From contig CAWBOC010000005.1 of assembly GCA_963790305.1 (NCBI GenBank), positions 576,001-640,000 on the forward strand: a DNA stretch of 64,000 nt. Reading direction: 5' to 3'. The stretch is from an uncultured Gemmatimonadaceae bacterium (GTDB lineage: Bacteria; Gemmatimonadota; Gemmatimonadetes; Gemmatimonadales; Gemmatimonadaceae). Both the position numbers and the translations under genes were made by a program. Shown here in pieces: positions 4,181-47,630 of this stretch; position 1 is the first letter of the stretch, and each line of letters begins with the position of its first letter. The notes beneath the pieces are model-generated. The model did no database searches. It was not told where the DNA came from and was given only the letters and a program-made list of their open reading frames with translations.

Positions 4181-7100
4181 ATGGCCACCCCGACTCGGAT
4201 GCTCCGACCCCTCGCTCTCTCCCTGCTCCTTCTCACGGTGGCCGGCATCGGCGCGGCACAGCAACCGCAGCCCCGCGTCCTCGTCTTCTCCAGGACCACC
4301 GGCTTCCGACACAGCTCGATCGAGACCGGGATTGCCGCAGTGCAGAAGCTCGGGCGGGAGAATGGCTTCGCCGTCGAGGCGACCGAGGACGCGGCCGTAT
4401 TCTCCGAGCGCAGCCTGAGACGATTCCGTGCTGTCGTCTTTCTCAATACCACTGGCGACATCCTGAACGCGACACAGCAGGATGCGTTCGAGCGCTACAT
4501 CCAGGCGGGCGGTGGCTGGGTCGGCATCCATTCCGCGGCCGACACCGAGTACGAGTGGCCGTGGTACGGGCGACTTGCCGGCGCGTACTTCGAGAGCCAC
4601 CCCAACGATCCCAACGTCCGGAAAGGCACGTTCCGCGTGCTGGACAAAACCCATCCGTCGACCGAGGGGTTTCCGGACCGCTGGGAGCGCGAGGACGAGT
4701 TCTACAACTTCAAGTCCATCGACCGCGACATCCGGGTGCTCGTCGACATCGACGAGACGAGCTACGAAGGCGGCACCAACGGCTCCCGCCACCCGATGAG
4801 CTGGTATCACCCGTACGACGGTGGCCGCGCGTTCTACACGAACATGGGCCACACCGAGGCGACGTTCTCAGAGCCGCTGTTCCTCCGTCACCTCCTCGGC
4901 GGACTGCGCTACGCGATAGGAACGGATTCGTTGAACTACGGACGGGTGCGTCCGGAGGAGAATCGATTCACGAAGGTCGTGCTCGCCGACAAGCTGAACG
5001 AGCCGGTGGAGCTCGCGGTTCTGCCTGACGAGCGAGTGCTCTTCATCGAGCGCAGAGGTCCCGTCAACCTCTACCGCCCGGCGACGGGACAGTACACGAA
5101 GCTCGCGACGATTCCCGTCAGCAACAAATACACGAAGGGCCAGGACGGAGAGGACGGGCTGCTCGGGCTCGCCGCCGACCCGAACTTCGCCAGCAATGGC
5201 TGGATCTACCTCTACTACTCGCCTGTCGGGCCGGAGCCGAAGAACGTGCTCGCTCGCTACACGATGAAAGGCGATTCGCTCGATCTCGCTTCAGCCGTGA
5301 TCGTTCTGGAGGTCCCCGTTCAACGCGACGAGTGCTGCCACACGGGCGGCTCGATCGCGTTCGACCGCCAGGGCAACCTCTACCTCTCCACGGGCGACAA
5401 CACCAACCCGTTCGCGACCGGCTACGCCCCGATCGACGAGCGCCCCAACCGTTCGCCGTGGGACGCGCAGAAGTCGTCCGCGAACACGAACGACCTGCGG
5501 GGCAAGATCCTTCGCATTCATCCCGAGCCTAACGGGACGTACACGATCCCGGAGGGAAACCTCTTTCCGAGGGGGACGCCGCAGACCCGGCCGGAGATCT
5601 ACACCATGGGTCACCGAAACCCGTACCGCATCGCCGTCGACACGCGGACCGGGTTCGTCTACTGGGGCGACGTCGGTCCCGACGCGGGCGCGGATTCGGC
5701 GGGGCGTGGGCCGGCCGGTCACGACGAGATCGGGCAGGCGCGGCGCGCCGGGAACTTCGGGTGGCCGCATTTCGTGGCCGACAACAAGGCGTATTTCGAC
5801 GTGGACTTCGGCACGATGACGGCCGGTCCCAGGTTCGATCCCGCGCGCCCCATGAACACCTCGCCGAACAACACCGGCCGAACCGAGCTGCCCCCAGCGC
5901 AGAGAGCATTCATCTGGTACCCGTACGGCCCGTCGGCGGAATTTCCGCTCGTTGGCAACGGCGGTCGCACCGCCATGGCCGGTCCGGTCCTTCACCGCGC
6001 CGATTTCCCGAACGCGGAGCGACCCTTTCCTGCGTATTACGATGGCAAGCTCTTCATTTACGAGTGGATGCGTGGATGGGTCATCGCCGTCACCATGGAC
6101 GAGCAGGGGAATCTCGTCTCCATGGAGCGCTTCATGGCGAGCCACAAGTTCAGCAACCCGATGGACATGGAGTTCGGGCCCAACGGCGACCTGTACGTCC
6201 TCGAGTACGGCACCGCGTGGTTCCAGGGCAACGACGACGCCCGGCTCGTCCGCATCGAGTACAACGGCGGCAATCGCAAGCCGATCGTCGCGGTTGGCGT
6301 CGACAAGCCGGCTGGAGCGACACCCCTAACGGTCGCACTGTCGTCCGTCGGCACCACCGATCTCGACGACGACGAGCTCCGATACGAGTGGAAGATTTCG
6401 CGCGCCAACGGGACCGCCGTCCGGACGCTCACCAGTCCCAACCCGACGTTCACCTTCGCGACGCCGGGCGTGTACACCGCGTCGCTCGTCGTCACCGACG
6501 CGCAGGGGGCGCGCGATTCGGCAAAGACGCAGATCGCCGCCGGGAACGAGCCGCCGAGGGTGGACATCGATCTGCTCGGAAGCAACCGGACGTTCTTCTT
6601 CCCCCGTGTCCCTGTCCGCTACGCTGTGCGCGTAACCGACCGCGAGGATGGCTCGCTCCAAAACGCGCGGATTCCCGCGAGCCGCGTGGTCGTGACGGCG
6701 GCGTACCACACGCAGGGACTCGTGCAAAGCCAAGGCGGACAACAGGTGGCCGTCGTGCCAGCGTCGCACGAGGCGGGCAGGCGCCTGATCGAGGGCGGTA
6801 CCTGTCTCTCGTGCCACCAGGTGGCCAAGGCGTCGGTCGGCCCCTCGTACACCGCCGTGGCGCGCCGGTATCGCGGTGACACCAGCGCGAGGGCGCGGCT
6901 CGTCCGGAAGATCCGCGCTGGAGGGTCGGGCGTGTGGGGCCAGACGATGATGCCGGCACATCCGCAGCTCACCGAGGCGCAAGCCTCGGCGATGGTGGCG
7001 TACATCCTCAGCCTGGCCCAGCCCCGCCCGCCATCGCTTCCCGTGCGCGGTTCGTACGTGCCCGCCGCACGGACCGACACGTCGCCACAAGGCGTCGTCG

Positions 7101-11405: not shown

Positions 11406-11434
11406 TTGACGATGGCAGTCGCCTCCCATACCTT
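11406..11434 (+). promoter_or_regulatory. sigma70-type promoter of his leader
   Basis: TTGACG-17 nt-TACCTT, ending 6 nt before the leader ATG. Confidence 0.6.
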
Positions 11435-11440
11435 GGGAAC

Positions 11441-11521
11441 ATGACCACGACCATTCGCCATCATCGCGCGCACCACCTCCACGGCCCGACGGGTCGGGGC
11501 GACGCGCGCGCATGCGGATGA
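11441..11521 (+). CDS. hisL: his operon leader peptide MTTTIRHHRAHHLHGPTGRGDARACG
   Basis: 5 His codons within 8 codons, directly upstream of a terminator and hisG. Confidence 0.85.
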   Translation: MTTTIRHHRAHHLHGPTGRGDARACG

Positions 11522-11553
11522 CCGTGTAACGGCACCTGAGCGCACGTACGCTG

Positions 11554-11589
11554 CGGCCCGTCCCTCCTGGACGGGCCGTTTTTCTTTTT
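11554..11589 (+). terminator. his attenuator terminator
   Basis: CGGCCCGTCC-CTCCT-GGACGGGCCG followed by TTTTTCTTTTT. Confidence 0.88.
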
Positions 11590-25782: not shown

Positions 25783-27219
25783 ATGTCAGTCTGCGATCAC
25801 TGCGCAACCGAGCTTCCGGACGCCGCACGCTTCTGCTTCGTCTGCGGGCAGGACGTCGTTCCGACGGCCGCGGCGGCGACGAAGCCGCACCTCGAAGCCG
25901 ATGCGATCGGCAAGCTCAAGGCGCGCTTGGCGAAAAGCCTGGACGGTCGATACCAGCTGCGTGAGCTCCTTGGCGCCGGTGGCATGGGGGTCGTGTTCCT
26001 CGCCGAGGACCTCAGCCTCGGCAGGTCCGTAGCGATCAAGGTGCTCCCGACGGAGCTCTCGAGCGACAGGAACATTGTGGCGCGCTTCCGGCGGGAGGCG
26101 AAGACCGCCGCCAGCCTCGACCATCCCGGGATCATCCCCGTGCTGTCGGTCGAGAGCGACCAGGAGTTGCACTACTTCGTCATGAAGTACGTTGCCGGGC
26201 AAACGCTCGAAGCGACGCTGCGTGACGGGCCGCTTCCCATCCCGCTGGCGGTTCAGGTGCTGCGCGAAGCCGCGGCTGCACTCGGCTACGCCCACCGGCG
26301 TGGAGTCGTCCATCGCAATGTGAAGCCGGCGAACATCATGCTCGAGGACGACCGCGTCATCGTCACCGACTTCGGCATCTCGAAGGTCGAGGCGACCTCG
26401 TCGAGCAGTGCGACGACCGCCGCGCGATTGACCGACCTCGGTACGGTCGTCGGCACCCCCGCATACATGGCACCCGAGCAGGCGATCGGTCAGCCCGTCG
26501 ATGGCCGCACCGACCAATACGCGCTGGGCGTCGTCGGCTTCGAGATGCTGGCCGGGAAGGTTCCGTTCGATGACCTGACGCCGCACGCGATCATTCAGCG
26601 TCACATCAACAATCTGCCCCCCGATCTGGGGACGCTGCGGCCCGATGCACCGCGACATGTCCTGGGGGCGATCTCGCGCGCTCTGTCGAAGGCGCCGTCC
26701 AATCGATTCCCGACAATGGAGGAGCTCGCGGCGGCGCTCGCCGGCGCCGGATCTCGCGGGACGGCGAACCTCGAGTTCTCGGTGCCGGTCGCGAACATGA
26801 CAGAGACGACGCCGCGAGTCGTGACCGCGTCGAAAGGCAGCCGGCTCGGGCGCTGGGCGGCAGTCGTCGTGTTGTTGCTCGCTGGTATCGGCGGTGCCGC
26901 GGCGTGGGCCCGCGGTGCGCGCGATACGCCAGCGCGGGCGGCGGAGGTCAGCGCGCCCGCGCGCCCGAGCACGACGGAGCGGTCGGCCCGTCGCCGCTCA
27001 GTCTCGTTCACCGTCGACGCGAAGCCGCGCGCCACGATCTACATCAACGACGTGCGCGTCGGGGAAACGCCGCTGTCCGGGCACAGGCTGCTCGTCGGCC
27101 GCGAGTATCACATTCGCGCCGTACGCGACGGCTACCGCACGAAGCGCGAGACGATCACGACCACGGGAACGGCGCCCGTCCGGCGCAGCTACGTACTGGA
27201 GCGCGCGAGGCGCCGTTAG
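25783..27219 (+). CDS. Ser/Thr protein kinase with zinc ribbon, TM helix and PEGA-like domain
   Basis: CxxC..CxxC, GAGGMGVV, VAIK, HRNVKPAN (HRD expected), DFG, GTPAYMAPEQ. Confidence 0.9.
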   Translation: MSVCDHCATELPDAARFCFVCGQDVVPTAAAATKPHLEADAIGKLKARLAKSLDGRYQLRELLGAGGMGVVFLAEDLSLGRSVAIKVLPTELSSDRNIVARFRREAKTAASLDHPGIIPVLSVESDQELHYFVMKYVAGQTLEATLRDGPLPIPLAVQVLREAAAALGYAHRRGVVHRNVKPANIMLEDDRVIVTDFGISKVEATSSSSATTAARLTDLGTVVGTPAYMAPEQAIGQPVDGRTDQYALGVVGFEMLAGKVPFDDLTPHAIIQRHINNLPPDLGTLRPDAPRHVLGAISRALSKAPSNRFPTMEELAAALAGAGSRGTANLEFSVPVANMTETTPRVVTASKGSRLGRWAAVVVLLLAGIGGAAAWARGARDTPARAAEVSAPARPSTTERSARRRSVSFTVDAKPRATIYINDVRVGETPLSGHRLLVGREYHIRAVRDGYRTKRETITTTGTAPVRRSYVLERARRR

Positions 27220-45688: not shown

Positions 45689-45786
45689 AACGCATGACCA
45701 CAGAGGCACTGAGGCACAGAGGACGGCAATCACCAAGCCGGTGGTTGCCGTCCTCTGTGCCTCAGCGCCTCTGTGGTTATGCCGTT
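45689..45786. repeat. ACAGAGGC-family palindromic element
   Basis: GCATGACCACAGAGGCACTGAGGCACAGAGGACGGCAA ... TTGCCGTCCTCTGTGCCTCAGCGCCTCTGTGGTTATGC. Confidence 0.9.
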
Positions 45787-46532
45787 GCGGTCCGGCGCTG
45801 ACGTACTTCCTCAACCGCCTCGAAGAGCTGATCGAACGAATCGACGACGAACAACACGTTCTGCAGTCGGTCGATGTCGAACGATTGGCTCATCACCGCA
45901 TCGACGTCGAACGGTCGCCGATCGCAATTCGGACCGAGCGCGTTCGCCGCATCGGCGTGCGACGAGATGAGCCCGCTGCCATAGATCCGGGTGCGCCCAC
46001 GTTCGCGAATGAGGCCGAACTCCACGGTGAACCAGAACAGCCGCGCCATGGCCACCGTCTGCTCCTCGGTCTCCGCGTGTGCCGCCAGCGCGCCGAACCT
46101 CTGGAGGAAATCGCCGAACACCGGGTCTGCGTGGAGCGGAACATGGCCGAAGACATTGTGGAAGATGTCCGGCTCCGGCAAGTAGTCGAGCTGCTCTCTC
46201 GGGCGGACCTTGAGCGTGGTCGGGAAGCGACGGCGCTCGAGGCATCGAAAGAACTGCGCTGCCGGGATGAAGCCGCTCACGCCCACGGCGGCCCATCCCG
46301 TACGCGCTGCCAGGCGCACGTTTACGTCCGCGAGATCAGGAACGCGATCCGACGAGAGCCCAATGCGCTCCATTCCGGATAGAAATGCCTCGCTCCCTGT
46401 GTCGACGAGCGTGGCCATCCTCCGCTCGTAGAGCAGTCGCCACACGGCGTGCGCCTCATCGTCGTACAGATCGTAGTCCTGGGCGGTGAATGGGGGCAGC
46501 TCCGCGGCGGGCGCGTCGGATGTGTCGAGCAT
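45777..46532 (-). CDS. phhA: phenylalanine 4-hydroxylase
   Basis: LDYLPEPDIFH-x-VFGHVP, ARLFWFTVEFGL, YGSGLISS; GAGGA RBS before the ATG at 46532. Confidence 0.93.
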   Translation of the reverse strand: MLDTSDAPAAELPPFTAQDYDLYDDEAHAVWRLLYERRMATLVDTGSEAFLSGMERIGLSSDRVPDLADVNVRLAARTGWAAVGVSGFIPAAQFFRCLERRRFPTTLKVRPREQLDYLPEPDIFHNVFGHVPLHADPVFGDFLQRFGALAAHAETEEQTVAMARLFWFTVEFGLIRERGRTRIYGSGLISSHADAANALGPNCDRRPFDVDAVMSQSFDIDRLQNVLFVVDSFDQLFEAVEEVRQRRTATA

Positions 46533-46551
46533 GAGTTCCTCGTACTCGGAG

Positions 46552-46588
46552 AAAACAAAAAGCGGCCCGTGGAATCTCCACGGGCCGC
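46552..46588 (-). terminator. attenuator terminator upstream of phhA
   Basis: Minus strand GCGGCCCGTGG-AGATT-CCACGGGCCGC followed by TTTTTGTTTT. Confidence 0.88.
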
Positions 46589-46614
46589 GGGCGAAACTGG
46601 CTGATCGCGAGCGC

Positions 46615-46701
46615 TTACACGCGCAAACGCCTGCCACCGCGTTCCGTGGGCCGGGACGCGTAGGGATAGTAGACAGCTGCGCGCAGGAAGGAGCTCACCA
46701 T
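46615..46701 (-). CDS. Tyr-rich leader peptide MVSSFLRAAVYYPYASRPTERGGRRLRV
   Basis: TAC TAT CCC TAC cluster; lies between a promoter and a terminator upstream of phhA. Confidence 0.78.
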   Translation of the reverse strand: MVSSFLRAAVYYPYASRPTERGGRRLRV

Positions 46702-46707
46702 GCCAAC

Positions 46708-46736
46708 AGGGTATACGCCGGCTGTCATGAGGTCAA
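46708..46736 (-). promoter_or_regulatory. sigma70-type promoter of phhA leader
   Basis: TTGACC-17 nt-TACCCT, ending 6 nt before the leader ATG. Confidence 0.6.
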
Positions 46737-46823
46737 GCGGAGCGGCCGCGCAGCGGTTGCGCTTGCCAGCAGGGCGAGCGCGCTCTATTGTCGCCGTCCC
46801 ATTGTCGAAGGCTGAGCCGATCC

Positions 46824-47628
<805 letters not shown>

Positions 47629-47630
<2 letters not shown>

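Follow-up and report, generated by a model that had tools for sequence, protein, structure and literature searches.

A predicted tyrosine-codon leader-peptide attenuator ahead of phhA in an uncultured Gemmatimonadaceae bacterium, and its histidine counterpart ahead of hisG

Organization of the locus

The window (the whole 64,000-nt stretch of DNA that was analysed) carries phhA on the minus strand behind a short leader, and a second leader built on the same scaffold lies on the plus strand ahead of hisG and the his operon. The features are given below in window positions. Proportions refer to 56 distinct Tyr leaders, which were chosen for having at least two Tyr codons and a hairpin.

46731..46736, minus strand: -35 box TTGACC; TTGAC occurs within 44 nt upstream in 42 of the 56 Tyr leaders vs 1.8% of all genome ATGs
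46708..46713, minus strand: -10 box TACCCT, with a 17-nt spacer to the -35 box; family consensus YANNNT
46615..46701, minus strand: leader uORF, 28 aa, probably leaderless; a Shine-Dalgarno-like motif precedes only 1 of the 56 uORFs
46660..46671, minus strand: control codons Tyr-Tyr-Pro-Tyr (YYPY), Tyr being uORF codons 11, 12, and 14
46652..46661, minus strand: segment 1, the 5' arm of the 1:2 protector hairpin; the helix can be extended upstream over the Tyr codons
46637..46649, minus strand: segment 2, the partner of segment 1 or 3, 10 nt past the last Tyr codon
46578..46590, minus strand: segment 3, the terminator 5' arm and antiterminator partner of segment 2
46562..46588, minus strand: 3:4 intrinsic terminator hairpin
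46552..46561, minus strand: U-tract
46537..46541, minus strand: phhA Shine-Dalgarno sequence GAGGA
45777..46532, minus strand: phhA, phenylalanine 4-monooxygenase, 251 aa, with its ATG at 46532
11406..11589, plus strand: His attenuator paralogue on the same scaffold, before hisG (11602) and the his operon; promoter 11406-11434, uORF 11441-11521, terminator 11553-11579, then a U-tract

An earlier sequence-only reading had placed a promoter (TTGACC-17-TACCCT), a 28-aa uORF with Tyr codons, an 11-bp GC hairpin with a U-tract, and the phhA ribosome-binding site (RBS) and ATG in this order on the minus strand, and all of these were found where it had put them (promoter at 46736-46708, uORF at 46701-46615). 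Because the uORF ATG at 46701 lies 6 nt past the -10 box with no Shine-Dalgarno sequence ahead of it, transcription probably starts at or adjoining this ATG, and the phhA leader transcript would be leaderless. The alternative upstream ATG returned by the ORF finder (46728) falls within the promoter spacer. The promoter of the window's phhA leader was absent from the list of a simple sigma-70 scan, and its support comes from conservation: a promoter pattern was found ahead of 45 of the 56 Tyr leaders vs 1.65% of all genome ATGs, with a gap of 5-7 nt from the -10 box to the ATG in 37 of these 45. Three Tyr within four codons occurred in 0.08% of simulated 27-codon ORFs at the Tyr frequency of the genome.

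The phhA terminator hairpin (-27 kcal/mol, z -5.6) can be drawn either with 11 bp around a 5-nt loop or with 12 bp around a 3-nt loop. An antiterminator had been proposed from the complementarity of CCACGG, just after the Tyr codons, to CCGTGG in the terminator 5' arm; the pairing held up, but its extent was not 6 bp, as it spans 13 positions with two mismatches (46649-46637 with 46590-46578; 2:3 fold -39.9 kcal/mol, z -2.8). Refolding also revealed a 1:2 protector hairpin missing from the sequence-only reading, in which 46661-46652 pairs with segment 2 and the helix continues for longer; taken alone in the window copy, the 1:2 fold was no better than shuffles (z -0.28). The 2:3 and 3:4 pairings are mutually exclusive.

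A divergent PPK2-family polyphosphate kinase gene lies at 46763-47630 (plus strand), and a promoter-like site there stands back to back with the attenuator promoter. Neighbour genes of phhA differ among relatives. A weak hairpin at 46525-46550 (minus strand) is able to cover the phhA start in the window copy.

The PhhA protein

The protein scored 296 bits on NF008877 (cut-off 247) and just below the cut-off on TIGR01267 (255/265). Its iron ligands H125, H130, and E171 align with those of solved phenylalanine hydroxylase structures. Residue 126, a conserved active-site position after the first iron-binding His, is Asn in the window PhhA; it is Asp in 138 of 141 homologues and Asn in one. The Asn126 codon (46157, minus strand) differs by a single base from that of genome G005. 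The best PDB match shares Asn126, the other structures having Asp, and this match is reportedly a form of the Chromobacterium enzyme engineered to lower activity. Since the assembly shows an apparent 1-nt frameshift near residue 228 of its own DAHP synthase gene (G000:C9:178678-179820, plus strand), itself possibly an assembly error, it is possible that Asn126 is a sequence error rather than a real variant.

Conservation of the leader among phhA loci

A PhhA homologue was encoded in 25 of 61 related genomes (own genome included), distributed over a close clade and a distant group. The Tyr element preceded 12 of the 14 close-clade phhA loci and none of the 14 distant-clade loci, one short fragment being excluded; in the distant clade, hppD lay directly downstream in 4/14. 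Close relatives identified by way of PhhA carry the Gemmatimonadota label. Sampling was extended to the best 80 phhA loci of GTDB, of which 59 were labelled Gemmatimonadota and 21 were other. Among the 59, the element was present at 42 (a count that includes two duplicates of earlier loci) and absent from 15, and two had less than 30 nt of upstream DNA. Nine of the 15 loci without it form one well-supported subclade, and phhA there closely follows another gene. The 21 other loci included two Acidobacteriota with the element (L089 and L108), and the Planctomycetota were without it; in 301 genomes sampled from L108's phylum, it was found at 2 of the top 30 phhA loci, one being L108 itself. An RNA model built from 55 Tyr leaders matched 34 of 151 Gemmatimonadota genomes under strict filters. 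One of the 55 aligned leaders (L005) comes from an unpublished genome, G015; it was included in the alignment, model, and tallies, and no conclusion hinges on it. The PhhA tree is a quick tree that omits six duplicate, broken, or short rows, and it was used solely to show that leaders cluster.

Several loci depart from the common plan. One subgroup (L044, L050, L051, L273, L298, L310, and L367) has no promoter match before the Tyr uORF, and in several of its members the uORF begins directly after an apparent tRNA 3' end, so that these uORFs may be transcribed from the tRNA promoter. At L066, phhA has upstream of it a terminator of the same family and a degenerate uORF; a promoter-like site lies between terminator and gene, and the element may be a bypassed relic. 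Three distant acidobacterial phhA loci (L353, L354, and L355) have short uORFs in which Tyr lies close to the stop codon; no terminator is present, and Tyr may be sensed there by another design. At L118 and L119, the same terminator core closes a non-coding stretch that is conserved and has no uORF with control codons, and a small RNA may be encoded there.

Codon usage, covariation, and folding

The uORF of the 56 Tyr leaders averages 27 codons and 3.4 Tyr, and its start and stop are conserved. Tyr codons numbered 192 in the uORF frame vs 2 and 18 in the other frames (TAC 101 and TAT 91 in usage), no Phe codon occurred in 43 of the 56, and the median distance from the last Tyr to segment 2 was 10 nt. 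Alignment of the regions upstream of related phhA genes, proposed as a check by the sequence-only reading, thus showed conserved Tyr codons, together with covariation in the terminator and 1:2 helices and weak covariation in 2:3. Across 55 aligned leaders, whose kinship can inflate counts of pairing and covariation, the terminator helix was 98.7% paired with two-sided change in 7/10 pairs, a strong covariation, and the 1:2 helix was 76% paired with two-sided change in 6/8 pairs, a moderate covariation. The 2:3 helix was 88% paired in the same alignment vs 25-45% when slid; its two-sided changes were matched by 27-39 of 500 shuffles, and one position was unpaired in 24/55. The conserved helices exclude the phhA RBS.

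Folding with the ribosome footprint masked was performed with an equilibrium model in which segment 4 is not yet made, a crude representation. The mean probability of the 2:3 helix over the 56 leaders was 0.84 for a ribosome stalled at the last Tyr codon and 0.36 for one at the stop, vs 0.31 when no ribosome was present; the values for the window copy were 0.75, 0.16, and 0.00, respectively, and with a longer mask this copy retained 0.43 at the stop. On average, a stall on the Tyr codons shifts the modelled fold to the antiterminator, and the outcome for the window copy depends on the mask. The model is not specific to Tyr, since a ribosome at codon 4 also favours 2:3 (0.73), and it misses the off state of the His leaders, which favour 2:3 even when unmasked (0.65).

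The same scaffold with other control codons

In a search of the window, a model made solely from Tyr leaders matched the His copy at an E value of 1e-9, and in the phylum sample a His copy of the scaffold preceded hisG at all 30 of the 30 best hisG loci. A pattern blind to gene and codon, consisting of segments 2, 3, and 4 only, was run over metagenomes and gave at least 120 loci. Among the matches listed, 31 had a U-tract, and all but one of the 31 stand before an amino-acid gene: 13 hisG, 8 DAHP synthase, 6 phhA, 2 pheA, and 1 aspartokinase. Control codons among the matches listed were His-rich before hisG; the DAHP synthase leaders had 25 Tyr and 20 Phe codons, the phhA leaders 17 Tyr and 0 Phe, the pheA leaders 9 Phe and 0 Tyr, and the aspartokinase leader 9 Thr. 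Two of the listed His copies look damaged, and two listed leaders are shifted in frame over segment 2. The RNA model also found Tyr-rich leaders before chorismate mutase-tyrA genes (L375 and L393) as well as, in one acidobacterial genome, a Cys leader ahead of PAPS reductase and an Asn leader ahead of asparagine synthase. In seven gene classes, the identity of the control codons follows what the downstream pathway makes, and this matching of codon to gene is the best evidence that the codons would act as the sensor.

The Cys case (L325; G237:C274, about 5706-5873, plus strand) is a Cys-rich leaderless uORF with a terminator before PAPS reductase. The Asn case (L326; G237:C107, about 26037-26192, minus strand) is an Asn-rich leaderless uORF with a terminator of the same kind before asparagine synthase B, and this one locus is a possible asparagine attenuator. 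A Thr leader before an aspartokinase and Phe leaders before prephenate dehydratase were noted among L203, L307, L318, and L399, the last judged by eye from its translation only. A scan of the window's own genome for more leader attenuators returned the Tyr and His copies only, its other matches being gene ends or IS borders, and no such leader was seen at its own DAHP synthase, tyrA, or pheA genes.

We lean, with modest confidence, towards a single portable leaderless attenuator module in which promoter-to-AUG geometry and the segment 2/3/4 core stay constant and a few exchanged codons set the specificity (Tyr, His, Phe, Phe/Tyr/Trp, Thr, Cys, Asn), occurring in Gemmatimonadota and some Acidobacteriota. 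It would constitute an undescribed family that runs control of amino-acid supply in the phylum, with the Tyr form marking phhA as the tyrosine-supplying enzyme and as the sole one where tyrA is lost.

Metabolic role of phhA

The sequence-only reading had suggested that this organism may make Tyr mainly from Phe. Its genome was searched for tyrA, a check that the same reading had put forward, and the result did not support the suggestion: a full-length TyrA with intact motifs is encoded in a tyrA-aroA cluster (E value of 1e-88 to a phylum profile that includes this TyrA). The genome also has aroC, aroH, pheA, and the pterin genes phhB and folE, and a single phhA. An AroQ-type chorismate mutase was not found in it; the AroH type was, and a broken de novo Tyr route, considered as a candidate, was dropped since AroH is present. 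Because tyrA, pheA, and aroH are all there, the view that Tyr comes mainly from Phe is unsupported for this organism. A homogentisate catabolic role is unlikely here because hppD and hmgA were not found in the genome, which is 94% complete. On gene content, the best reading of phhA in this genome is as a salvage or back-up gene for Tyr beside TyrA, not as the main route.

A phylum-specific profile found no full-length TyrA in 8 of 20 element-bearing Gemmatimonadota genomes; together with a second domain, the profile recovered divergent TyrA missed by one Pfam domain in G034, G212, G040, G024, G022, and G052. By a single Pfam model, which is possibly insensitive, pheA was found in four of these eight genomes (G005, G013, G130, and G228) and not in the other four (G011, G028, G047, and G048). 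In a set of 60 relatives taken without selection, no TyrA was found for 6 of the 11 genomes with the element vs 10 of the 49 without it, a tendency only, given that these are kin and drafts. A main route from Phe may hold for some relatives without TyrA, and phhA there is perhaps the only Tyr route. Two findings speak against a purely biosynthetic reading: of the 17 element-bearing genomes tested, 10 had hppD, and in G027 this gene comes immediately after the attenuated phhA, in the same orientation. Genome G011, by contrast, speaks for the biosynthetic reading: it has one stand-alone phhA with the attenuator and one phhA of the distant type, adjoining hppD, that lacks it.

Proposed mechanism and alternative explanations

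Judged from sequence and folding models, the phhA leader is very probably a classical four-segment ribosome-stalling transcription attenuator that senses charged tRNA-Tyr. RNA polymerase would start at or adjoining the uORF AUG, and the uORF would be translated as a leaderless message. With Tyr plentiful, the modelled ribosome passes the Tyr codons to the stop and segment 2 stays with segment 1; the 3:4 terminator would then form and transcription would end 20 nt before phhA. With Tyr-tRNA scarce, the modelled ribosome halts at the Tyr codons with segment 1 beneath it, and segment 2, lying 10 nt further on, would pair with the emerging segment 3, so that no terminator forms and phhA is transcribed. 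PhhA, by its family membership, would hydroxylate Phe to Tyr. A Tyr-sensing attenuator giving phhA biosynthetic control was the central claim of the sequence-only reading, and conservation, covariation, folding, and the codon-gene matching in paralogous copies now back it.

Four other explanations were weighed against this attenuator. The family could be functional while the window copy decays or drives a weak enzyme, TyrA supplying Tyr as phhA drifts; the Asn126 residue, the two mismatches of segment 2 to segment 3, and the presence of TyrA would all fit. However, G005 has the same segment-2 variant and a near-identical leader with a PhhA that is 81% identical and has Asp, the window phhA has an unbroken ORF whose product clears the family cut-off, the genome has phhB and folE, and Asn126 is a single-base change for which sequence error is possible given the DAHP synthase frameshift; we regard decay as improbable. 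A leader peptide that itself arrests the ribosome on a free amino acid in the exit tunnel, as TnaC does, could for example induce phhA for Phe catabolism, and phhA is indeed catabolic in Pseudomonas and Shewanella (PMC1173090, PMC3223726). The peptide also looks conserved past the Tyr run (A-T-x-x-T-G-R), yet it is the RNA that is conserved: ACG encodes the 'Thr' in 43 of 55 leaders, the remainder having mostly NCG at this codon, and the same nucleotides occur in the His, Phe, and Thr versions and in another reading frame in L277 and L321. On these nucleotide patterns the apparent peptide motif is an RNA constraint, and with the lack of Phe in 43 of 56 phhA leaders and the absence of the leader from the distant phhA clade, some of whose loci have hppD directly downstream, peptide arrest has a very low probability.

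Control could instead act on the initiation of phhA translation by occlusion of its RBS, as in the mycobacterial leaderless Cys uORFs (10.1101/834739), in which case the hairpin would be no working terminator. The phhA uORF is probably leaderless like those, and the weak hairpin over the phhA start in the window copy could serve this end; the conserved hairpin, however, is followed by a U-tract and sits upstream of the RBS rather than over it, and we give occlusion hardly any weight. Least credible of the four is a leader that mainly senses the modification state of the tRNA or the general speed of translation. TAT makes up 47% of the control codons vs 26% of Tyr codons in the long ORFs of the genome, which has one tRNA-Tyr(GTA), and any upstream stall favours 2:3 in the model. 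Only amino-acid sensing, however, explains why codon identity tracks the downstream product over seven gene classes, and modification effects would be secondary to the sensing of Tyr supply.

Comparison with known systems

The predicted phhA attenuator resembles E. coli pheL-pheA, and likewise trpL, hisL, and thrL, in its short uORF, run of product codons, 1:2, 2:3, and 3:4 helices, and U-tract (PMC3082878). It differs from the pheL class in that its control codons are Tyr and its target converts one amino acid into another, and its uORF appears leaderless whereas pheL has a Shine-Dalgarno sequence (PMC3082878). Unlike the classical attenuators, leaders of the phhA type reuse one scaffold across amino acids within the phylum. 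The Rfam amino-acid leader families (Trp, His, Thr, Leu, and Phe) gave no match at E of 10 or less for the Tyr and His copies or at E of 1 or less in 10 other loci, and all these Rfam searches returned sub-threshold, unrelated matches only. A T-box reading of the GGTGG stretch was rejected, there being no T-box match and the GGTGG of the window copy being unconserved in the alignment.

A T-box binds uncharged tRNA directly, and the specifier of the one ahead of phhA in the Bacillus cereus group is reportedly Tyr. The T-box upstream of phenylalanine-4-hydroxylase in that group places the same target gene under tRNA-charging control (PMC2494555), but the window leader has a predicted translated uORF and no T-box match. 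The mycobacterial polycysteine leaderless short ORFs (Ms5788A) combine a leaderless uORF, a run of control codons, and amino-acid sensing by ribosome stalling, a combination that the phhA leader probably shares; that type frees a sequestered RBS, while the phhA leader has an intrinsic terminator and an antiterminator instead (10.1101/834739). Predicted actinobacterial trp and leuS attenuators are similar in their GC-rich terminators and in conserved complementary triples common to antiterminator and terminator; for the operons of tyrosine, histidine, and phenylalanine, that survey found nothing conserved of this kind, and it describes tyrosine as T-box regulated elsewhere (PMC1262725). The phhAB genes of Pseudomonas and Shewanella belong to the same enzyme family, but are under PhhR/TyrR transcription-factor control within catabolism (PMC1173090, PMC3223726), the Shewanella type being catabolic TyrR control (PMC3223726). 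In contrast to them, the window phhA stands alone, and searches of its genome found neither hppD nor hmgA.

Putative attenuators upstream of tyrA operons have been tabulated in a paper whose main text does not mention leader peptides (PMC1173090). Neither a Tyr leader-peptide attenuator nor any attenuator of Gemmatimonadota was found in the literature covered, a scope that excluded subscription comparative-genomics surveys, curated regulon databases, and supplements. The sequence-only reading knew of no described Tyr attenuator on phhA; this stands as far as a published Tyr leader peptide is concerned, but not for the gene, which a T-box precedes in the B. cereus group. Control of phhA of a Tyr type has precedent there, and no leader-peptide form of it was found in these sources.

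Significance

The mechanism itself is a textbook one and the surprise is moderate; the contribution of this locus lies in the evidence for a single leaderless scaffold that can be reprogrammed across amino acids, and in having a His paralogue within the one window. If the attenuator is as proposed, the range of classical leader-peptide attenuation would widen to tyrosine and, on the strength of one locus, asparagine, and leaderless translation would be united with attenuation of the terminator type. The natural codon-swapped copies on one scaffold would offer a ready system for studying changes of attenuator specificity, and the leader a compact 150-nt part for amino-acid biosensors. For uncultured bacteria, the element would provide a sequence marker that splits supply-type from catabolic phhA, which bears on the prediction of Phe and Tyr auxotrophy in a common soil phylum.
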